Positions 572 through 15,989 of a DNA stretch of 64,000 nucleotides are shown piece after piece. The notes beneath the pieces were generated by a model. That model made no database searches, had not been told where the DNA came from, and saw only the letters and a program-made list of their open reading frames with translations. Source of the DNA: Minisyncoccia bacterium. Lineage in GTDB: Bacteria > Patescibacteriota > Minisyncoccia > UBA6257 > 2-01-FULL-56-20. Position 1 is the first letter of the stretch. Each line of letters begins with the position of its first letter. A program made the position numbers and the translations under genes. The DNA lies in the NCBI GenBank assembly GCA_050008535.1, contig JBEKML010000002.1, positions 24,732-88,731 of the forward strand. The letters are read 5' to 3'.

Positions 572-2743
572 TTATTTTACCATTCCATCGCCCCGCCATG
601 CCTCTACCATAAGCATCGTTCCCGGACGGAAGATGCCGTAGATCTCTTCTGTCACGAACGGCATGAAGGGATGGAGCATTTTGAGCGATGCCAAGAGCAG
701 ATATTCAAGAAGAGCGTAGGATCCGGCTTTTTGCGCGGCATCTCCGTCGCGCAAAGCGATCTTTTCCGCTTCTACAATTTTGTCCGCAAGCGTGTGCCAG
801 ATATAGTGGTAGAGCTTTTCCGCGGCAAGATGGAATTCAAACGCCTCAAGATGCGCCGTTACTTCTGTTTTGAGCGCATCAAGCGCTTCTATCTCCATGC
901 GCCTCTCAATGGTGAATTTTTCCGGGTCCACGGGCGCTCCCTCCGCTGGTTTGTTCATATTGATGAACCGCGCGATGTTCCATATCTTTGTTGAGAAGTT
1001 CCGGTAGCCCCGGATGCGGTCTTCGGAAAGCTTAATGTCGCTTCCGGCCGAGGCGCCGATCACGAGCGAGAGCCGCGTAGCATCCGCGCCATATTTCTCC
1101 GCCATTGCGAGGGGGTCAATGCCATTGCCGAGCGACTTGGACATTTTCCGCCCCTTTGCATCGCGCACGAGGCCGTGCAAATATACTTCGCGGAAGGGGA
1201 CCGTGCCCATAAGACACGTGGACATAAGGATCATCCGCGCGACCCAGAAGAAGAGAATGTCATAGCCCGTTTCCAACAGTGAGTTCGGGAAATAAGTTTT
1301 AAGGTCTTTCGTTTTGTCCGGCCAACCGAAGACCGAGAACGGCCAGAGTCCGGAGGAAAACCAGGTGTCCAGAGTGTCGGGGTCCTGTGTCCATTTGTCG
1401 CCACGCGGCGGTTCAGTGCCAACGTAAACTTCTTCGCCCTTGTACCACACCGGGATCCGGTGCCCGAACCAGATCTGGCGCGAGATGCACCAGTCGTGCA
1501 AATGATCTATCCAGTTGAAATAGATCTTCCCGAAGCGGTCGGGGGTGATCTTCACGGCGCCGCTCGCTACGGCTTCACGCATGAGCTCTTTTGGTGTTTT
1601 TTCTTCGCCGTCCGCTGCCTTGAATTTTCTCTCGACTGCCACGAACCACTGTTTCAAGATCTGCGGCTCAATGATGCCTCCGCCGCGGTTGTTCGTCGCA
1701 ACGCGGTGGGCGTAATGCTCATCCACTTTTTCTATAAGCCCCTTCTTTTTTAATTTCTGGACGATGAGCGGCCGCGCTTTTTTGATGTGCATTCCGGCGA
1801 ACTCGCCTGCGATGGGGAGTAGCTTTCCGTTCAGATCAATGATTTGTTCCGTATCAAGATGGTGCCGTTCGGCGATCTCGAAGTCCGTCGTGTCGTGCCA
1901 CGGCGTGATGGTCATCACGCCCGTCCCGAACGCCATGTCAATTGACGGATCTTTCACGATCGTCGCCTTCACGGGGCCATTGATCCACTCAAGATCAATC
2001 ATTGCGCCGTGCTGGTATTTCTCGTACCGCTTGTCGTCGGGATGCATCACAACGTACTTGTCGCCGAATTTCGTCTCCGGCCGCGCCGTGGCGATCGTGA
2101 ACGGGCCGTATTTCAAGTAATAAAAAGGAGCCGTTTCTTCAATCCACTCCACTTCGTCATCCGAGACCGTCGTTTGCAACTGCGGATCCCAGTTCACGAT
2201 CCGGTCGCCGCGGTAGATAAGGCCCGTTTCGTACATCTTCTGGAATGCCGCGCGGACGGCGCGCTCGCGCGTGGCGTCGAGCGTATACGTTTCGCGGCTC
2301 CAATCAAGCGACGCACCCATCCGTTTCACCTGCTTCACGATCGTATCGTGGCTCTTTTTTGCGTACTCATGCACGCGCCGCAAAAATTCCTCCCGGCCGA
2401 GATCGTAGCGGCTTTTCTTTTCTTCTTTTGCGATCATTTTTTCCACGCGCGATTGCGTGGCGATCGCCGCATGGTCCGTGCCTGGGACCCAGAGCGTTCG
2501 CTTGCCGCGCATGCGATTCCATCGGACGAGAATATCTTCGATCACAAGCATCGCCGCATGTCCCATATGCAATTCTCCCGTCACATTCGGCGGGGGAAGT
2601 ATTATAGAGAATGGTTCCGCGTCCGCGGCCGTCACGCCTTTTTCCACGCATACATCCGGATTGAAATATCCCGACCGCTCCCATGCGGCCGCAATGCGGG
2701 ACTCCACTTCTTTTATGTCATAGCGCGGTTCCATGGCTGGCAT
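572..2743 (-). CDS. valS: valyl-tRNA synthetase (short form, 723 aa)
   Basis: PPPNVTGELHMGHA (HIGH-type) and KMSKSLGNGIDP (KMSKS) class I motifs in ValRS-typical context. Confidence 0.88.
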   Translation of the reverse strand: MPAMEPRYDIKEVESRIAAAWERSGYFNPDVCVEKGVTAADAEPFSIILPPPNVTGELHMGHAAMLVIEDILVRWNRMRGKRTLWVPGTDHAAIATQSRVEKMIAKEEKKSRYDLGREEFLRRVHEYAKKSHDTIVKQVKRMGASLDWSRETYTLDATRERAVRAAFQKMYETGLIYRGDRIVNWDPQLQTTVSDDEVEWIEETAPFYYLKYGPFTIATARPETKFGDKYVVMHPDDKRYEKYQHGAMIDLEWINGPVKATIVKDPSIDMAFGTGVMTITPWHDTTDFEIAERHHLDTEQIIDLNGKLLPIAGEFAGMHIKKARPLIVQKLKKKGLIEKVDEHYAHRVATNNRGGGIIEPQILKQWFVAVERKFKAADGEEKTPKELMREAVASGAVKITPDRFGKIYFNWIDHLHDWCISRQIWFGHRIPVWYKGEEVYVGTEPPRGDKWTQDPDTLDTWFSSGLWPFSVFGWPDKTKDLKTYFPNSLLETGYDILFFWVARMILMSTCLMGTVPFREVYLHGLVRDAKGRKMSKSLGNGIDPLAMAEKYGADATRLSLVIGASAGSDIKLSEDRIRGYRNFSTKIWNIARFINMNKPAEGAPVDPEKFTIERRMEIEALDALKTEVTAHLEAFEFHLAAEKLYHYIWHTLADKIVEAEKIALRDGDAAQKAGSYALLEYLLLASLKMLHPFMPFVTEEIYGIFRPGTMLMVEAWRGDGMVK

Positions 2744-3245: not shown

Positions 3246-4082
3246 ATGGCAGACGAGGCCCCGAAAGCGGCAAAAATAGCGATGGATCCGGTCGGTGCGC
3301 TCTTTACGGGCGCGTGGCGGCGCTATGGAGAGCGTTTCTGGACGCTCGTGTGGATATTTTTCATACCAAGCATCCTCCTTTTATTAGGACGATTGTTTTT
3401 GGAAGGAGGAACGCCGCCGCGGATACTTGTGGGCGGTATTCTTTCATTGATTGGTTCGCTCGTCTCCATCCCGGCTTCACTTGCACTTGTGAACGCTCTC
3501 GCGCACGGGACGGATTTTACGATGTCGTATCGCGTGGGGCTGAAGCTTTTCTGGCCGGCGGTGTGGATATGCATACTAGACGCTCTCGCGGTCGTCGGCG
3601 GGTTTGCGCTTTTGATCGTTCCCGGTATCATCTTGAGCGTCGCGCTTATGTTCGCGAATTACACGCTCGTCGTTGAAGACAAGCGCGGAATGCATGCGCT
3701 CATGCAAAGCAGGGGATACGTAAAAGGATATTGGTGGGCGATCTTGGGGAGGGGTATCCTCCTCGGCGCGATCTTTTTGGGCGTGCTCCTCCTTGTGTAT
3801 CTGCCGCTCGCCCTGCTTCTCGGCAAAACGATCGGCAACGTGATATACCTCGTCCTCCTTTTATGCTTTACGGCGTTCGGCGTTTGCTACTCCTACGAAA
3901 TGTACGCAAATCTAAGGAGGCTCAAAGCGGGCGCAATGGAGGAGGCAGTAAAAGGCAAAAATGGATTTTTGAAGGTCTGCATGGCGGTCGGTGTTCTTGT
4001 TGTCCTCGTTATTCTTTTTCTCGTCGTCATCGGGGTGTTGTGGACTGGCGTGCCACAATCATCAAACGTCATCAAATCGTAA
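3246..4082 (+). CDS. polytopic membrane protein, unknown function
   Basis: 278-aa ORF with ~6 hydrophobic segments; extended -10 (TGTGTTATATAAT) ending 7 nt before ATG (leaderless-type). Confidence 0.6.
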   Translation: MADEAPKAAKIAMDPVGALFTGAWRRYGERFWTLVWIFFIPSILLLLGRLFLEGGTPPRILVGGILSLIGSLVSIPASLALVNALAHGTDFTMSYRVGLKLFWPAVWICILDALAVVGGFALLIVPGIILSVALMFANYTLVVEDKRGMHALMQSRGYVKGYWWAILGRGILLGAIFLGVLLLVYLPLALLLGKTIGNVIYLVLLLCFTAFGVCYSYEMYANLRRLKAGAMEEAVKGKNGFLKVCMAVGVLVVLVILFLVVIGVLWTGVPQSSNVIKS

Positions 4083-6796: not shown

Positions 6797-6870
6797 CAAG
6801 AAAAATACAGAGGGGCTTTGAAGAGAGCCCTTCTGAGTACTCGATTCAAAGCCCCTCTGTATTTTTCTTG
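6797..6870. repeat. 26-bp-stem hairpin element with conserved loop (GAGCCCTTCTGAGTACTCG), copy 1; abuts 3' end of tRNA-Glu
   Basis: Perfect inverted repeat caagaaaaatacagaggggctttgaa / ttcaaagcccctctgtatttttcttg; loop nearly identical to copy at 14415-14484. Confidence 0.65.
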
Positions 6871-7434: not shown

Positions 7435-8957
7435 AACGGTTTTTTGAGATCCTGCCTGGGGCGCTCGCTTGGGCAACGATCATCTTCATGTTTTTGTTTT
7501 CGTGGCTTCTCCCCGCGTGGGTTTCGATTTTCATCATCCTTTTCGACGTCTACTGGCTTTTGAAGACCATCTATCTTTCGCTCCATCTTCGCGCGACGTT
7601 TTCGCAGATGAAGAAAAACATGGCGGTGGATTGGCTTCTGCGCCTAAACGAATCGAAGGGCGTTCCCCGATGGGAAAATATTTATCACCTCGTGATCCTC
7701 CCGATGTATCACGAACCGTACGAAGTGGTGAAAGAGAGCTTTGCGCGCCTTTTTGAAACGCATTATCCGAAAGAAAAATTATTGGTGGTGCTTGCGCTTG
7801 AGGGGCGCGCGGGCAGGGCGGCGGAGGAGGTGGGAGAGCGGATCAAAAAAGAGTTCGGCGGAAAATTTTTCCGCTTTCTTGTAACGACTCATCCTGCGGA
7901 CCTCCCCGGCGAGATCCCAGGCAAGGGATCCAACGAAACCTGGGCGGCGCTGCGGGCGAAGGAAATCCTGCTTGATCCGTTGCACATTCCCGCGGAAAAC
8001 ATTCTTGTTTCGGTCTTTGACGTGGATACGCAGGTCTTTACTGAATATTTCAGCCGGCTCACCTACGTGTTTCTCACAGCGCAGAATCGCTTGCGCGCCA
8101 TCTATCAGCCGATCCCGCTCTTTACGAACAACATCTATGAGGCGCCGGCATTGGCGCGGGTGGTCGCATTCTCCACGACCTTTTGGCAAATGATGCAGCA
8201 AGCGCGCCCGGAACGCCTGACCTCTTTTTCTTCCCAATCCGTGCCGCTCAAGGTATTGCTTGATATCGGATTTTGGCAGAAGGATATTGTCTCAGAGGAT
8301 TCGCGGGTTTTTTGGCAATGCTATTTGCGCTATCACGGCGACTTCCGCGTGGAGCCGCTCTTATATCCCTTGTCCATGGACGCGAACGTGGCGCCCACCT
8401 TTTGGGCTACCATGAAAAATCTTTACAAGCAGCAGCGGCGGTGGGGATGGGGGTGTGAGAACATTCCGTACATGCTTCAGGGGTTCCGGCGCGATCCGCA
8501 GATCCCGTCCGGGAAGAAACGCTACTGGAGGTTCAACGTACTGGAAGGATTCCATTCGTGGGCGACAAATGCACTTATGATCTTTGCCCTGGGGTGGCTT
8601 CCGCTTTTTCTTGGCGGCCGACATTTTACCGATACGCTTCTTTCTTACAACTTGCCGCGGATCACGCGGTTCATCATATCGCTTTCCATGATCGGTATCG
8701 TGAGCTCCGCGATCTTGGGCATCCTTCTTTTGCCGCCAAAAACAAAAGGGCTGCGCGCCCGCAATTATCTTGTCTATTTTTTACAATGGGCCCTTATGCC
8801 TCTTACGCTCATCATCTTCGGCGCCTTCCCCGGGCTTGAAGCGCAGACGCGGCTCATGCTCGGCGGTCGCTTCCGCCTGGGCTTTTGGGTTACGCCCAAG
8901 GGGCGTAACCCAAAAGGGGAAGAGGGACCGGGGAAACATGATAAAATAAAGCAATGA
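7428..8957 (+). CDS. membrane-embedded processive family-2 glycosyltransferase (cellulose/chitin-synthase-like; DxD, SED, QQRRW motifs)
   Basis: N- and C-terminal TM segments, VFDVDT, VSEDSRVFW and KQQRRWGWG motifs. Confidence 0.8.
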   Translation: MVKRFFEILPGALAWATIIFMFLFSWLLPAWVSIFIILFDVYWLLKTIYLSLHLRATFSQMKKNMAVDWLLRLNESKGVPRWENIYHLVILPMYHEPYEVVKESFARLFETHYPKEKLLVVLALEGRAGRAAEEVGERIKKEFGGKFFRFLVTTHPADLPGEIPGKGSNETWAALRAKEILLDPLHIPAENILVSVFDVDTQVFTEYFSRLTYVFLTAQNRLRAIYQPIPLFTNNIYEAPALARVVAFSTTFWQMMQQARPERLTSFSSQSVPLKVLLDIGFWQKDIVSEDSRVFWQCYLRYHGDFRVEPLLYPLSMDANVAPTFWATMKNLYKQQRRWGWGCENIPYMLQGFRRDPQIPSGKKRYWRFNVLEGFHSWATNALMIFALGWLPLFLGGRHFTDTLLSYNLPRITRFIISLSMIGIVSSAILGILLLPPKTKGLRARNYLVYFLQWALMPLTLIIFGAFPGLEAQTRLMLGGRFRLGFWVTPKGRNPKGEEGPGKHDKIKQ

Positions 8958-10093
8958 AAGTCCGCCGGGGGTTTACTATCATTGAACTTCTGATTTTTGC
9001 CGCTATTTTTTCTTCTATCATGGCGGGGCTTATCACCGTGCTTATTACCATGACGCGCGTGCAGAGCCGCCAATCGTCGGCGACCGACGTGGAAACACAG
9101 GGACAATTCTTGCTCCAGCAATTTCAGTATTACATACAAACGGCACGGCTGGTCGATATGGTGCAGGATGCCGCGGCGGGGACGCTCAAGCTCCGGGAGC
9201 TAACCTTGGCACCCGATCCCACCTTCGTTACGCTTGCCACGGGGACAGTATATCTTCAGCAGGGCCTTGGCGGAGCGCTCCAGCCCTTGACCTCGAACAA
9301 GGTGACGGTATCCAACCTTTCGTTTATAAGGCATTACAATCTCAATAGTTCCTCAACGGCGTACGGCGTCGATTCGGCATCGTACTCTTTCACGGTATCA
9401 GCGAATACTTCAAATACTACTCAGCAATATTTCCAAAAGTTCCAATCGTCTGCGGCGGTTACGGCGCCCGTTCCCAAAATTGCCCTTATGCAGCAGACGA
9501 GCACGCTTGTTTACGGAACGAGTACGAACATGGCGGGGACCTATATAGGCAATAATGCCACGGGGAGTTTGCTCGTTGCGGTCGTTGTGAACACTAATCT
9601 CGTTTCTATTTCGATCGGGGACACCGCGGGCAATGCATGGAGCAACATAGCGAGCACGACGTACGCGGCATACAATCAGAAGATCACTATTTTTGCCGCG
9701 GCCAATGCGCGCAACAGCTCGAACACGGTTACGGCAACCCTCGGGGGAAGCGGCGGGTATAATCCTTCACTTTTTCTCTATGAATATCGCAGTGCGTCGA
9801 CCTCTTCTTTGGTCGATGCTTCCTCTACCCAGACGCAGTCAAACGCGACGGCCATATCGAGCGGTCCGGCGACGCCGACCTCGAATGTCGAGCTTGTCTT
9901 CGGCGTGATGTACCTGAACACGTGGCCGGCAACCCCGCCCGTAGCCGGATCGGGGTTCACCATAAAATCCTCCTCAAGCGCGAGCAATACCTTTATTGAA
10001 GATAAAAATGTTTACGTGACTGGCCCTGTGGTTGCCGACTGGGCGCTCTCGCAGGCGGCAAGTTCGTCCGCGACCGTCGTCACGTTCAAGTAA
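8954..10093 (+). CDS. large type IV pilin/pseudopilin-like protein with Ser/Thr-rich C-terminal domain
   Basis: Class III signal MKVRRG|FTIIELLIFAAIF (G-1, F+1, E+5); start overlaps stop of GT2 gene (ATGA). Confidence 0.8.
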   Translation: MKVRRGFTIIELLIFAAIFSSIMAGLITVLITMTRVQSRQSSATDVETQGQFLLQQFQYYIQTARLVDMVQDAAAGTLKLRELTLAPDPTFVTLATGTVYLQQGLGGALQPLTSNKVTVSNLSFIRHYNLNSSSTAYGVDSASYSFTVSANTSNTTQQYFQKFQSSAAVTAPVPKIALMQQTSTLVYGTSTNMAGTYIGNNATGSLLVAVVVNTNLVSISIGDTAGNAWSNIASTTYAAYNQKITIFAAANARNSSNTVTATLGGSGGYNPSLFLYEYRSASTSSLVDASSTQTQSNATAISSGPATPTSNVELVFGVMYLNTWPATPPVAGSGFTIKSSSSASNTFIEDKNVYVTGPVVADWALSQAASSSATVVTFK

Positions 10094-10098
10094 GGCAA

Positions 10099-10254
10099 GC
10101 GCCAGGCCGCAATGGTCTTTGCGGGTACGGGTGTCGGCGTGCTCCAGCGGCACGCCGCACCCTGCTCTCTCGGCGCGGCGACTCCGCGCAGACGCGGAGA
10201 CCAAGCTCGCCGCGCCTCCGAGAGCCCCCGCCAAGACCATTGCGGCCTGGTGCT
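10099..10254. repeat. GC-rich structured palindromic element (28-bp imperfect outer stem enclosing nested hairpins)
   Basis: gcgccaggccgcaatggtctttgcggg ... cccgccaagaccattgcggcctggtgc outer arms; internal stems ggcgtgc/gcacgcc and ctccgcg/cgcggag. Confidence 0.5.
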
Positions 10255-10288
10255 TGCCCCATGTACGATTCTGTAAGATAATCCCAGC

Positions 10289-11149
10289 ATGAAAGATTAT
10301 TCTAAAAAGTTAAAAGAATACGACAAAGAAAAGATCACGCTCATTAAACATCAGTGGGGTCAAAACGCGACTTCTCTCTATAACCAAGTTGTTCAAGCTT
10401 GGGACCATATTCCTTTTGGCAAAAAAATTGCTATTATTTCCTATAAAAAATTTGGGATGAAAAGTGCCCTAACCTTTTTCAAAAAGAACGGCTTAGTATG
10501 TGAGGTTGTGGGCAAAGGACCCGACGGCCTAAGGCTCGTTGAATGCGAAAAGAAGGAACATAACCATTTAAAACCTATAGAAATATCAAATATAGTGAAG
10601 TTTGATTTTCTCGGGAAAAGTTATAAAGCTGACGTTGGAAGCTCCATCTTTTCTAAAACAGGTCTTGATAAAGGAACAAGATTTCTTCTGGAATCATTCT
10701 TTTCTTGGGATATTGATCTCAATGGAAAAGAAGTCGTCGATATGGGAACGGGGTGGGGCGCAATATCTATAATCATCGCCAATGAATTTCCAAAAGCTCG
10801 AATTACCGCATATGAAAAGGATGATGCATCTTTCGAGGCGGCCAAAGAAAATCTTTCAGGATTTTCGCAAGTAAACGTAAAGCAAGTCGATCTTGCTCAA
10901 AATATCAAACGGCAACGTGGGACATTCGATTATATTTTATCCAACCCTCCGTTTCATGTTACCACCGAAGAGAGGCATAGGATTTTTAAATATGCAGATA
11001 GTTTATTAAAAAAGAAGGGTGAGATGATCTTTGTCGTAGAAAATTCTTTTACTAATCGATTTGCCCTCACCGCAAAATCTTTTTTTGACATCCTGCAAGA
11101 AGAGAAAAACGCTGATTATAGTGTACTCAGATGTAGGAAGTTTGATTAG
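10289..11149 (+). CDS. class I SAM-dependent methyltransferase, RsmC/RlmG-like (rRNA guanine-N2 MTase family)
   Basis: DMGTGWGAISI SAM-binding motif and NPPFH catalytic motif; gene visibly A+T-richer than all neighbours. Confidence 0.75.
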   Translation: MKDYSKKLKEYDKEKITLIKHQWGQNATSLYNQVVQAWDHIPFGKKIAIISYKKFGMKSALTFFKKNGLVCEVVGKGPDGLRLVECEKKEHNHLKPIEISNIVKFDFLGKSYKADVGSSIFSKTGLDKGTRFLLESFFSWDIDLNGKEVVDMGTGWGAISIIIANEFPKARITAYEKDDASFEAAKENLSGFSQVNVKQVDLAQNIKRQRGTFDYILSNPPFHVTTEERHRIFKYADSLLKKKGEMIFVVENSFTNRFALTAKSFFDILQEEKNADYSVLRCRKFD

Positions 11150-11320
11150 TGTCTCCGCTTGTGCTTGCGAAACCACGCGGGAGGGCGAGGGAGAAATCCG
11201 CGAGCGAATAGAAAATCCGCCGGGTACCCGGGAGCGGCGACCAGGGTGGCGGATTTTCGTATATGAGCGAGCTGGATTTCCCGAGTCCGAAGCAGGTTTC
11301 GCAAGCACAAGCGGAGACAC
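11149..11320. repeat. GC-rich palindromic element: perfect 26-bp terminal inverted repeat with nested 11-bp stem
   Basis: gtgtctccgcttgtgcttgcgaaacc ... ggtttcgcaagcacaagcggagacac; inner gaaaatccgcc...ggcggattttc; lies between convergent MTase and recG. Confidence 0.55.
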
Positions 11321-11324
11321 TAAC

Positions 11325-13511
11325 TTACTCCAAGTGGATATCTTTCTGGAACTCGGCGAGTTTTGCTTTGAGCGGGAGATAGGTTTTGAGCGAGGGATCG
11401 CTTTGGACGAGCACAAGGGCGGCTTCGCGGCTCGCCTTCACGAGTTCGGGGTCCTGGAGCGCGCCCATCGCAACATCGGGAAGCCCCGTTTGTATTTCGC
11501 CGAAGAATTGGCCGGGACCGCGGAGCGCAAGGTCTTTTTCGGCCAGTTCAAAACCGTTCTTCGCTTCAAGGATCGCTTTGAGCCGCGCATTCGCCGCCTT
11601 CGCATCAGAATCCGCCATGAGGAAGCAATATGATTGATATTCGCCGCGGCCGACGCGCCCGCGGAACTGGTAGAGCTGGGCAAGCCCGAACCGTTCGGCG
11701 CCCTCGATCATCATAATAGAGGCGTTCGGCACGTCCACGCCGACCTCCACGACCGACGTTGCGACCATGATGTCAAATTCCCGCGCCTTGAACTTTTTCA
11801 TGACATCCTCTTTTTCTTTGCCCTTCATCTGGCCGTGGAGCATGGCAATCTTAAGATCGGGAAAAATTTTCGTACGCAATTTTTCGTATTCTTCTTTCAC
11901 CGATTTCATTTCCAGATTTGCAATGGTCCGCTTGTCTATTTTCGCTACGGTATCTGGTTGGCCGTTATTCTGCGCTTCGCTTTTTTCTATCCGCGGGCAG
12001 ATGACGAACACCTGCCGTCCTTCGCCGATCTCTCGTTTCACGAATGCGTAGGTTGCCTGCCGCCCGATCGGCAGGACGATTTTTGTTTCGATGGGCTTCC
12101 GCCCACCCGGGAGTTCGGTGATGAGCGAAAGGTCGAGGTCGCCGAACACCGTGAGCATAAGCGTGCGCGGAATGGGCGTGGCTGACATGCTCAAGAAGTG
12201 GGGGATGAATCCGCCTTTTTTCTTCGCAAGTTCCGCGCGCTGGCGCACGCCGAAGCGGTGTTGTTCATCAATGATGACCAAGCCGAGATTTTTGAACGCC
12301 ACGGTTTTTTCTATAAGCGCGTGCGTGCCAAAAACGATCGCAATCTCGCCTGCGGCCACTTTTTTGCTCATTTCCGGTTTTGTGACGGGCGCCGCGACAT
12401 CATTTTCATAAAACACCGTGGCACCGCTTCCCGTCACGAGTCCGATCGCTGGCTGGTATTCGGCCGGCATCCGGGCGAGCAGTTCCTTCATCGTTTCAAA
12501 ATGCTGGCGCGCAAGGATCTCGGTCGGCGCCATAAATGCCGTCTGGCAGCCGTTCTCCGCTGTCGTCATCGCGGCCACTGCCGCAACGACCGTTTTCCCC
12601 GATCCCACGTCCCCTTGAAGCAGCCGGTTCATCGGCCGCGGTTTTGCGAGGTCCTTCATGATCTCCCATAGCGATTTCTTTTGCGAAACCGTGAGTTCGA
12701 ACGGCAGCGCGGCAAGGATCGTTTTCACTTTTTCTATGTCCGCCGTGATGACGGGCGCTTTCTCCTCTGCGAGTTTGAGCTTCTGTTTCAGATTCACGAT
12801 CTGGAGAAGGAAGAGGTCTTCAAAAGAAAACCGCTTCTGCGCCGCGGCGGCATCCGCGAGCTGCTTCGGGAAATGGATCGTGCGGATCGCCTGGTTGATC
12901 TCCGGGAAATTGAGCTTTGCGAGCGTGGGCTGCGGGATCCATTCTTTGAGCGGGAGCGCGCGCTTGATAATGGACTGCATAATGAAGCGCAGGCCGCGCG
13001 ACGTGAGGCCGCGCGTTTCGGGATAAACGGGAACGAGCCGCGCCGTGTGGGTGGTTTCCCGGGGAGCCGCAGCTTCGTTCCCGCGGAGCACTTCGTACGC
13101 TGGATGGCTCAAGTACCGCTCACCATCGTCCGCAAGAGAAACTTTTCCGGCAAAATTCGCGCGCCTGCCCACTTTCAAAATATTCGCCACGTACGGCTGG
13201 TTGAACCAAATTGCGCGGATCACACCGCTCTCATCCGCGATCATCGCTTCAACAATGCTCATGTGCCTGCGCCAGCTCTGGCTCGCGTGCACCTCTTCAA
13301 TGATGCCTTGGACGGTCGCCTGTTGGCCGGGTTCCAGATCGGCGATGGAATATATTTTTGAGAAATCCTCGTAGCGGGAAGGGAAGTGCCAAAGGAGATC
13401 GCGGATATTTTTAATGCCGAGCTGTTCAAGCCGCCGCAAGAACGCGGACTTCGCGCCAAGCACTTCATACAACGGGGTATCAAGCGCAACCTGCGGCATA
13501 GTTTTGCCCAT
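11325..13511 (-). CDS. recG: ATP-dependent DNA helicase RecG
   Basis: N-terminal wedge region, GDVGSGKT Walker A, DEQHRFG motif II, helicase C-terminal motifs. Confidence 0.9.
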   Translation of the reverse strand: MGKTMPQVALDTPLYEVLGAKSAFLRRLEQLGIKNIRDLLWHFPSRYEDFSKIYSIADLEPGQQATVQGIIEEVHASQSWRRHMSIVEAMIADESGVIRAIWFNQPYVANILKVGRRANFAGKVSLADDGERYLSHPAYEVLRGNEAAAPRETTHTARLVPVYPETRGLTSRGLRFIMQSIIKRALPLKEWIPQPTLAKLNFPEINQAIRTIHFPKQLADAAAAQKRFSFEDLFLLQIVNLKQKLKLAEEKAPVITADIEKVKTILAALPFELTVSQKKSLWEIMKDLAKPRPMNRLLQGDVGSGKTVVAAVAAMTTAENGCQTAFMAPTEILARQHFETMKELLARMPAEYQPAIGLVTGSGATVFYENDVAAPVTKPEMSKKVAAGEIAIVFGTHALIEKTVAFKNLGLVIIDEQHRFGVRQRAELAKKKGGFIPHFLSMSATPIPRTLMLTVFGDLDLSLITELPGGRKPIETKIVLPIGRQATYAFVKREIGEGRQVFVICPRIEKSEAQNNGQPDTVAKIDKRTIANLEMKSVKEEYEKLRTKIFPDLKIAMLHGQMKGKEKEDVMKKFKAREFDIMVATSVVEVGVDVPNASIMMIEGAERFGLAQLYQFRGRVGRGEYQSYCFLMADSDAKAANARLKAILEAKNGFELAEKDLALRGPGQFFGEIQTGLPDVAMGALQDPELVKASREAALVLVQSDPSLKTYLPLKAKLAEFQKDIHLE

Positions 13512-14414: not shown

Positions 14415-14484
14415 GCAGCAACGCCAGAGGGTTTTGAAACGAGCCCTTCTTAGTACTCGTTTCAAAACCCTCTGGCGTTGCTGC
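14415..14484. repeat. 27-bp-stem hairpin element with conserved loop (AGCCCTTCTTAGTACT), copy 2; 8 nt from 3' end of tRNA-Lys and just after EamA stop
   Basis: gcagcaacgccagagggttttgaaacg / cgtttcaaaaccctctggcgttgctgc perfect inverted repeat; loop matches copy 1. Confidence 0.65.
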
Positions 14485-15393: not shown

Positions 15394-15449
15394 AAATTTG
15401 ACAGATATTGGGCGCGTGTAGTAGGAATAATTCAGTTGGAGGGGAAGGC

Positions 15450-15989
15450 ATGATCAACATTCCCAACCTGTTGTCCGGCCTGCGGCTGGTTCTTGCCCCG
15501 TTCATCGTCTACGGTATCGCGACGGGACGGAACGCTCTGGCGCTTGTACTTTTCGCGATTGCCGCCATCACAGATCTTCTGGACGGCATGATCGCACGGA
15601 GGTTCAACCTTGCTACGGTTTTCGGGGAGCGGCTGGACCCGATCGCCGACAAAGCGCTCATGAGTAGCATCATTCTCGCGCTGGGATTTTCCGGCGCGGC
15701 GCCGTGGTGGTTCGTCACGATCGTCCTTGGCCGCGACGTCTTGATACTCATTGCGGTTGGGATATTCCTTGTTTTCGCGCAGGCACAGCGATTCCGGCCG
15801 AGCGTGTGGGGCAAGGCATCAACTCTTTTCCAGATCGTGGTCGTGGCGCTGCTTATGTGCGCGAAAGCTTTTCGGTGGACGGGGCTTTCTTCGTTCGTCG
15901 CTGCGGCAATCGTGGCATCGGCGGCGCTCACGGCGTGGAGCGGCATCCACTACGCGTGGCGTGGCGTTGCCATGATCAAAAAGCGCTAA
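15450..15989 (+). CDS. pgsA: CDP-diacylglycerol--glycerol-3-phosphate 3-phosphatidyltransferase (CDP-alcohol phosphatidyltransferase family)
   Basis: DLLDGMIARR...GERLDPIADK CDP-OH_P_transferase signature; GGAGGGG SD 7 nt upstream of ATG. Confidence 0.8.
   Translation: MINIPNLLSGLRLVLAPFIVYGIATGRNALALVLFAIAAITDLLDGMIARRFNLATVFGERLDPIADKALMSSIILALGFSGAAPWWFVTIVLGRDVLILIAVGIFLVFAQAQRFRPSVWGKASTLFQIVVVALLMCAKAFRWTGLSSFVAAAIVASAALTAWSGIHYAWRGVAMIKKR

Follow-up and report, generated by a model that had tools for sequence, protein, structure and literature searches.

The stretch of DNA analysed here, hereafter the window, comprises 64,000 nucleotides of contig JBEKML010000002.1 from a metagenome-assembled genome of the Minisyncoccia (Paceibacteria of the candidate phyla radiation, CPR; Patescibacteria). 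It harbours a palindromic element of 178 bp in total (11146–11323) that occupies the space between two convergent genes. On the left is a plus-strand methyltransferase (MTase) gene (10289–11149, 286 amino acids), which forms the border of the element without being part of it, and on the right is the recG helicase gene on the minus strand (11325–13511), the stop codon of which abuts the right arm of the palindrome. Upstream of the MTase gene lies a pilin-like gene with an N-terminal methylation motif (8954–10093, plus strand, 379 amino acids), and a second palindromic element (10094–10258, plus strand) begins directly after its stop codon.

The initial annotation of this region, made from the letters alone, described a perfect 26-bp inverted repeat between the MTase and recG genes. 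The repeat is real and is in fact 29 bp long, with fully (100%) complementary arms at 11146–11174 and 11295–11323, to which no strand is assigned, and 120 nucleotides between them. The three additional bases, TTA on the left and TAA on the right, overlap the MTase stop codon TAG (11147–11149), which is held within the left arm, and the right arm ends 1 nucleotide short of the recG stop codon (11325–11327, minus strand), so that the palindrome spans the entire 175-nucleotide gap between the convergent stops. At its centre is an inner hairpin (11211–11258) with the perfect 11-bp stem that had been annotated (GAAAATCCGCC/GGCGGATTTTC, found at 11211–11221 and 11248–11258) and a 26-nucleotide apical loop; the inner stem and the outer arms are concentric, sharing a symmetry axis at 11234.5. 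The motif GGGTACCC (11222–11229), which had been taken for the centre of the structure, proved to be off-centre, at the 5′ edge of the apical loop, where it sits within a small palindrome of its own (CCGGGTACCCGG, 11220–11231, axis 11225.5). Inner and outer stems are separated on either side by 36 nucleotides (11175–11210 and 11259–11294), segments of equal length that lack in-register complementarity and can pair only partially (GGGAGAAATCC / GGATTTCCC). The left segment begins with ACGCGGGAGGGC and the right one finishes with CCCGAGTCCGAAGCA, and both of these junction motifs recur in an element of a related genome that is discussed below (L094:2436–2577). The sequence of the element is identical, and internal to the contig, in seven contigs from separate samples that encode the same MTase or RecG protein, and it is identical as far as it goes in two shorter contigs that terminate inside it, which rules out an assembly artefact.

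Read as RNA, the element folds into a long rod, with a folding energy of −112 kcal/mol on the plus strand (z = −11.8) and −103 kcal/mol on the minus strand (z = −11.7); with DNA parameters the single strand reaches −63.5 kcal/mol (z = −10.9). Only three intergenic regions of the window fold at −0.6 kcal/mol per nucleotide or below, all of them at 3′ ends, namely the two palindromes around the MTase gene and a hairpin of the type A described below, which follows EamA/tRNA-Lys. The inner hairpin is GC-rich, has an energy of −26 kcal/mol on either strand and is followed on both strands by an AUUUUC tail, A-tract and U-tract flanks being present in both directions, and it looks like a bidirectional intrinsic terminator. 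It loosely resembles (AAAACGCCCGCC...GCGGCGGGCG) the plain recG terminator of the two closest relatives of the window, L094 and L095, where a simple hairpin (GCCCGCC...GGCGGGC) preceded by an A-tract stands after recG. Related loci are designated here by L numbers (180 fetched, 1.9 Mb in all); the scans of genomes and of metagenomes were recG-based, and that of metagenomes returned few close relatives, with 75% identity at best.

The MTase gene stands apart from its surroundings. Its foreign composition, already pointed out in the initial annotation, is borne out by a GC content of 37% against 54.5% for the window and 54–56% for the neighbouring genes. The product is an RsmC/RlmG-like S-adenosylmethionine-dependent methyltransferase with a small domain (MTS), and its best curated matches are RsmC and RlmG, which are m2G methyltransferases of 16S and 23S rRNA, although all matches fall far under the equivalog cut-offs. 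The gene does not encode a DNA methyltransferase, and no restriction partner accompanies it. In the reading favoured here the MTase is a low-GC gene that was acquired separately by lateral transfer. A promoter-like site (TTGCCC-17-GATAAT, 10254–10282, plus strand), which is a match to a sigma-70-like consensus only, precedes it; the −35 hexamer overlaps, and is partly formed by, the end of the left palindrome, and the −10 hexamer ends 6 nucleotides before the ATG, so that the MTase mRNA may be leaderless.

In relatives the order of genes is conserved, with DoxX, a glycosyltransferase and the pilin-like gene followed by convergent recG, and in most of them the pilin-like gene converges directly on recG. 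In the comparison of orthologous loci that had been proposed along with the annotation, the MTase gene is at this position in none of roughly 170 related recG loci examined, which makes it a lineage-specific insertion in an interval of variable content. Pilin-like gene and recG meet or overlap, or are 12–41 nucleotides apart, with no insert in L180 (81% RecG identity to the window), L177 (77%), L178 (76%), L009 (74%) and L050 (72%), and the spacer is filled by a hairpin with a 32-bp stem in L096 (79%) and by one with 29-bp arms that are 97% complementary in L179 (78%). L094 (86%) and L017 (83%) have three other open reading frames (ORFs) in the interval, one of them with a sigma-70 region 4, and no remnants of these three were found in the window. 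The interval is a hotspot of change in gene content in the clade, as can be seen from the window (10094–11323), L094:12206–14004, L017:2350–3742 and the empty sites. In L017, which is the contig of a GTDB representative, a run of 100 Ns at about 2250–2350 interrupts recG, beyond which no RecG C-terminus is detectable; it may be a scaffold gap, a masked stretch or possibly a misjoin, and since it falls inside recG only the pilin-proximal part of the L017 interval is usable.

It had also been proposed that the right-hand palindrome acts together with a left-hand element to bracket the MTase gene. The left-hand element exists, and the gene is bounded by both palindromes, but the notion that the two are the ends of one cassette did not hold up. 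The left-hand element (10094–10258) has 32-bp arms that are 94% complementary, with 101 nucleotides between them, and folds into a three-way junction (z = −13.6), and its interior aligns with elements from four relatives in the same three-way arrangement. This architecture, designated B1, consists of a long outer stem, AC, a hairpin P2, UC, a helix P3 (CUCU...GAGA) with its apical hairpin, and CG. A covariance model built from five B1 elements (R1) scores the left-hand element at 43 bits and has no match to 11146–11323 even with the filters off, and the right-hand element folds as a rod, not as a three-way junction; it was accordingly rejected as a member of B1. As the model recognises the left palindrome and not the right, the two palindromes that flank the MTase gene are different elements. 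A covariance model of the B1 core finds eight members, and in relatives the family is found at the 3′ ends of other genes and of tRNAs. Covariation within the family is strong: 89% of cells are paired, 17 of the 26 pairs show double compensatory changes and G-U accounts for only two of 197 cells. Of the five covariation measures, only the number of further pair types was ever reached by a shuffle, and each measure dropped sharply in all slid controls.

One B1 member, L094:13777–14004, lies in the same orientation directly after the orthologous pilin-like gene of a genome that lacks the MTase, and is a probable ortholog of the left-hand element. Shared ancestry is likely rather than certain, because L017 has no B1 element at the 3′ position of its pilin-like gene. 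The left-hand element is probably older.

Elements of this general kind are widespread in the clade. A census of perfect inverted repeats (stem of at least 18 bp, loop of at most 220 nucleotides) covered the window and the 1.9 Mb of related loci, for which the chance expectation is about 0.003 per Mb. In distant Paceibacteria, palindromes of 18–26 bp with loops of 0–5 nucleotides are common, many of them immediately 3′ of recG. Examples in which recG is followed by a perfect palindrome within about 10–70 nucleotides are L135:2603–2654, L109:2450–2493, L149:7406–7441, L158:2040–2075, L166:2179–2226, L154:8366–8414 and L123:12142–12229. These have 18–26 bp per arm and mostly 0–5 nucleotides of loop (46 in L123); ordinary terminators have far shorter stems. 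In another distant Paceibacteria locus, L029:2880–3343, the palindrome TGTTTCACGTGAAACA occurs four or more times in a cluster of about 360 bp, which could be an operator or origin-like array. Within the window, several imperfect inverted repeats (70–83% complementary, arms of 18–30 nucleotides) cluster at 1945–2472 inside a class I aminoacyl-tRNA synthetase gene (572–2743, minus strand); they probably reflect its GC-rich coding sequence and not an element.

Close relatives, with RecG identities of about 68% or more, have bigger and more elaborate palindromes, and nearly all of their long perfect inverted repeats stand just 3′ of stop codons or tRNA 3′ ends, several of them overlapping the last 3–6 nucleotides of the tRNA. 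Beside B1, one group comprises hairpins designated type A, which have a 25–32-bp stem, perfect or nearly so, and a conserved 12-nucleotide loop (TACTnnGAAGGG); the inner part of the stem is conserved (GGnTTTGRAnnGAG / CTCnnTYCAAAnCC) and the outer 10–14 bp are different in each copy. They are found 3–7 nucleotides after tRNA 3′ ends or overlapping them, or between convergent genes, both in the window (6797–6870 and 14415–14484, each read on the minus strand) and in relatives (L096:8312–8387, 12136–12211 and 15396–15471; L095:3767–3828), and have no match in Rfam. Rods form a third group (L094:2436–2577 and L094:5762–5923). The type of element at a given position varies: at the 3′ end of fusA, L178 has an ordinary hairpin with A/T flanks, L096 has a B1 element, L094 has the rod L094:2436–2577 and the window has nothing, and the position after tRNA-Ala is taken by a rod in L094 and by a type A hairpin in L096. 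Dispersed copies also occur within single genomes, with three of type A in L096, two of B1 in L010 and two similar hairpins in L179. The L179 pair (3820–3903 and 8081–8157) sits at unrelated loci, one of them the recG/pilin spacer, and has arms of 29–31 bp that are about 80% similar (AAGGAAGCC(C)ACnnnnTTTTGGC); it is a dispersed family in which the arms themselves are conserved. Their position at transcript 3′ ends suggests that the modules work, or are at least tolerated, as 3′-end structures. A published survey reports independently that inverted repeats of bacteria peak just after stop codons and that, among all the phyla it covers, perfect inverted repeats are densest in those of the CPR (PMC13155455).

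The closest relative of the right-hand element in these data is the rod L094:2436–2577, which lies 18 nucleotides downstream of the stop codon of fusA and has 25-bp perfect arms around a 92-nucleotide interior. In both, the arms end in ...AACC / GGTT... and the junctions carry the motifs rYGCGrGAGGGC and CCCGA...AGC(C)A; the arms are about 65% alike, each difference being compensated on the opposite arm. The two are a probable, though not proven, family (B2). A regular-expression search for the junction motifs over the 1.9 Mb found no third member, the other matches being coding-sequence noise.

Throughout the clade the arms are copy-specific yet perfect or nearly so, with conservation greatest in the core and falling off toward the ends. 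How such arms might come about is indicated by the B1 element L094:13777–14004, the arms of which reach 27 nucleotides into the coding sequence of the pilin-like gene. Its distal arm complements 21 of the 27 terminal coding nucleotides (P about 4e-7), and since the same coding end is also conserved in the window, it is the distal arm of L094 that is the inverted, slightly decayed copy of the gene. This is direct evidence that palindromes of this kind grow by copying of the flank. Inspection by eye found no inverted copy of the 3′ end of the pilin-like gene beside the left-hand element of the window. The strict Watson-Crick pairing, with almost no G-U, favours copying at the DNA level or a function on both strands, and template switching is known to create, homogenise and expand the arms of inverted repeats (PMC8794818, PMC13100816).

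The explanation that we favour, and to which we give somewhat better than an even chance, is that 11146–11323 belongs to a clade-specific class of palindromic modules that resemble bidirectional terminators and have arms made or kept perfect by template switching, and that it stands beside a laterally acquired rRNA-type MTase gene without being part of it. A strong bidirectional terminator was one of three explanations that had been offered for the repeat, next to a MITE-like element and an integration scar, and it is the best fit of the three in view of the position of the element, its inner hairpin and the hairpins of the relatives; terminating and insulating activity, as well as template switching at this particular copy, we infer. 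On this model, transcription from either side would copy one outer arm first, and RNA polymerase would then meet the GC-rich hairpin GAAAAUCCGCC...GGCGGAUUUUC, which is the same on both strands, and would terminate or pause there. Any read-through transcript would fold up as the whole rod, with 29 perfect base pairs closing it. The rod would either hold off 3′ exonucleases or serve as a substrate for a double-strand-specific RNase, and would keep the MTase and recG genes insulated from each other. The arms would be locus-specific sequence rather than ends for the binding of a transposase, having arisen by intrastrand template switching at replication, whereby one flank is copied as the reverse complement of the other, a process that would both homogenise and lengthen the palindrome. 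The foreign MTase gene would have landed in a variable spot between the 3′ element that belongs to the pilin-like gene and recG.

Several observations weigh against this account. As to termination, there is no U-tract after the outer stem, the inner U-tract has only four U's, a simple consensus scan for terminators made no call on the element, and the 26-nucleotide apical loop and the 29-bp outer arms far exceed what termination needs. As to family membership, the homology to L094:2436–2577 is modest, with z = 2.5 for the alignment of the interiors and p about 0.06 for the similarity of the arms, and rests mainly on two junction motifs that were noticed post hoc. As to the origin of the arms, the only trace of copying at 11146–11323 is the 4-nucleotide overlap TTAG/CTAA with the MTase stop codon, which could be chance, and conserved cores at non-orthologous sites need a means of dispersal that template switching alone does not obviously supply.

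The element could alternatively be a miniature inverted-repeat transposable element (MITE), in which the 26–29-bp arms would serve as terminal inverted repeats for a transposase encoded elsewhere and which would have inserted at a TA by the new gene. Small (178 bp), non-coding and furnished with perfect terminal repeats, it has the right outward form, and some kind of dispersal must exist in the clade since related cores occur at non-orthologous sites with several copies per genome; the most similar element, L094:2436–2577, is itself at a different locus. The arms, however, differ among related elements, and decay from the core outward is the opposite of what characterises transposase-bound ends. 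No other copy of the arm was found in the window, in the 180 fetched loci (1.9 Mb) or in viral contigs; in the window a search that allowed up to three mismatches returned the two arms only, and 0 of 100 shuffles had any match. The 26-bp arms are indeed abutted at both ends by a TA. This dinucleotide is itself palindromic, however, and the repeat runs one base further, so that the TA is no evidence of duplication; nor was there a consistent target-site duplication at the related elements, flanking direct repeats being present at none of the six checked. A Pfam scan of about 56 ORFs of the window, several of which had no match, detected no transposase, integrase or reverse transcriptase domain, and the ORFs that did match are housekeeping genes (aminoacyl-tRNA synthetases, TsaD, ribosomal proteins, SecY, DnaE, ATP synthase). 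We judge a MITE to be unlikely, and the earlier description as MITE-like finds no support in its classical sense (arms conserved among several copies, target-site duplication, a cognate transposase), while remaining apt in the loose sense that elements of this type form dispersed families in the clade. Repetitive extragenic palindromic (REP) sequences and bacterial interspersed mosaic elements (BIMEs) with REP-associated tyrosine transposases (RAYTs) were also considered and rejected. Such elements are palindromes of 20–40 bp with a GTAG or CGTC tag at one end, a high copy number and a RAYT gene (PMC3733652); here the arms start with TTAGTGTC and have neither tag, the element is single-copy in the window and no Y1 transposase domain was found there. 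The idea of an integration scar or recombination site, in which the two palindromes would be att- or attC-like junctions of an MTase cassette, draws on the low-GC segment (about 10259–11149) being bounded exactly by the two palindromes, on the MTase being missing at the locus in all relatives examined and on the variable content of the pilin-recG interval (three ORFs in L094 and L017, and an empty interval in most other relatives). Yet L094, which has no MTase, carries an element of the left one's type immediately 3′ of the stop codon of its pilin-like gene, and left and right elements are unrelated in sequence and architecture. The nearest homolog of the MTase (73% identical, L089) has neither arm in its available flanks of 71 and 26 nucleotides, and a 51%-identical homolog lies inside an operon without a long palindrome. 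Given about 70 intergenic slots, it is not very improbable that two of the four long palindromes should flank one gene by chance (roughly 0.03 to 0.17, according to the way of counting). The bracketing of the MTase as a scar of integration is weakened by the probable ortholog of the left element in an MTase-free relative and by the lack of arms in the short flanks of the closest homolog, and we consider it very unlikely. An integron attC site has R″ and R′ core sites (RYYYAAC...GTTRRRY), an imperfect stem with extrahelical bases and an integron integrase nearby. This identity was rejected, since the ends of the right-hand element (CACTAAC/GTTAGTG rather than GTTRRRY) mismatch the consensus at two of seven positions, the stem is perfect and free of extrahelical bases, no integrase was found in the window, and the left element has no GTT core. 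A retron msr-msd, in which inverted repeats a1/a2 flank the RNA beside a reverse transcriptase gene, was likewise dismissed, the neighbours being a methyltransferase and recG and no reverse transcriptase domain having been found in the window.

It remains to consider whether the element acts as RNA or as DNA. A structured non-coding RNA gene, that is, a rod-like small RNA or a 3′-UTR-derived RNA released from the duplex, with termination incidental, would account for the very low folding energy on both strands, and the neighbouring B1 family, which covaries strongly over a defined three-way junction, and the type A hairpins with their conserved 12-nucleotide loop both suggest structures that are recognised. 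The strict Watson-Crick pairing with almost no G-U would be unusual under selection at the RNA level alone, however, and a scan of the element for a promoter-like site of its own found none. Searched with Rfam, the whole window yields only tRNAs at gathering thresholds, and 9900–11500 yields nothing credible when the threshold is relaxed to E ≤ 10. The element has a single known homolog, a weak one, and the interior is poorly conserved; an RNA gene seems to us quite improbable. Still more doubtful is a site that acts at the DNA level, as an extruded cruciform or a single-strand hairpin for protein binding, recombination or replication. The perfect Watson-Crick pairing, the concentric inner and outer stems and the single-stranded DNA fold noted above agree with such a site, and the adjoining interval is a hotspot of gene-content change, but a non-palindromic spacer of 120 nucleotides makes extrusion of the outer-arm cruciform kinetically unfavourable, and a role linked to transcription is suggested by the regular occurrence of related elements at the 3′ ends of transcripts.

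The clade may carry a class of portable 3′-end modules in which a conserved structured core (the type A hairpin, the B1 three-way junction or the B2 rod) disperses to new ends of genes and tRNAs and there grows long, strictly Watson-Crick arms by inverted copying of the flank, even into coding sequence. Such modules would give very compact genomes strong bidirectional terminators, and would also be fragile spots for the insertion and exchange of foreign genes, the MTase gene among them. We put this generalisation forward tentatively, as a possibility that is rather less than likely, and such a class may be previously undescribed. To our knowledge, the ending of transcription and the insulation of tightly packed convergent genes have hardly been studied in the CPR/Patescibacteria, and a search of the literature on these subjects found nothing. 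Were the modules terminators, they could be used for the prediction of genes and operons in CPR genomes, and they would help to explain why the CPR leads in the density of perfect inverted repeats (PMC13155455). Arms that copy adjacent coding sequence would furthermore show clearly, in bacteria, how a palindrome grows through template switching. At the locus itself there is a correction to make: the repeat is no evidence of a transposon or of a restriction-modification island, and the gene beside it is a laterally acquired rRNA-type methyltransferase.

Among known systems, the small dispersed palindromes of bacteria offer an obvious comparison. REP/BIME, ERIC/IRU, Correia (CREE/NEMIS) and RUP/BOX elements are, like the element described here, small non-coding palindromic modules in transcribed intergenic regions and at gene ends, and some of them act as terminators or as targets of RNase III. 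As with such dispersed repeats, each element type of this clade is found at several loci, and it is present at some orthologous sites and absent from others. The known families keep conserved ends or whole sequences, however, often together with a tag (GTAG/CGTC in REP; PMC3733652) or, in Correia elements, a TA duplication, whereas in the clade elements conservation is confined to the core and each copy has ends of its own. No RAYT or transposase was seen in the window. A likeness of circumstance is provided by the repetitive hairpins of organelles, exemplified by the repetitive hairpin elements (RHEs) of sponge mitochondria, which are reported likewise to invade the scarce intergenic space of a compact genome (PMC2800124), although their host is unrelated and they bear no sequence relationship to the clade element.

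Bidirectional intrinsic (Rho-independent) terminators share with the element a position between convergent stop codons, a GC-rich hairpin and A-tract and U-tract flanks on both strands, and relatives of the window hold ordinary hairpins at equivalent positions. The element differs from them in its length of 178 nucleotides, its perfect 29-bp outer stem without a U-tract, its 26-nucleotide loop and its tail of four U's. Hairpins produced by template switching (PMC8794818, PMC13100816) are a further parallel to the clade elements, in which the arms are perfect, G-U-free and copy-specific and one arm in L094 is an inverted copy of the adjacent coding 3′ end. The published cases are mostly short stems in eukaryotic rRNA, miRNA precursors and promoters, whereas the elements of this clade have arms of 25–32 bp (a degraded 68 in one relative), stand at the ends of bacterial genes and are built around conserved cores.

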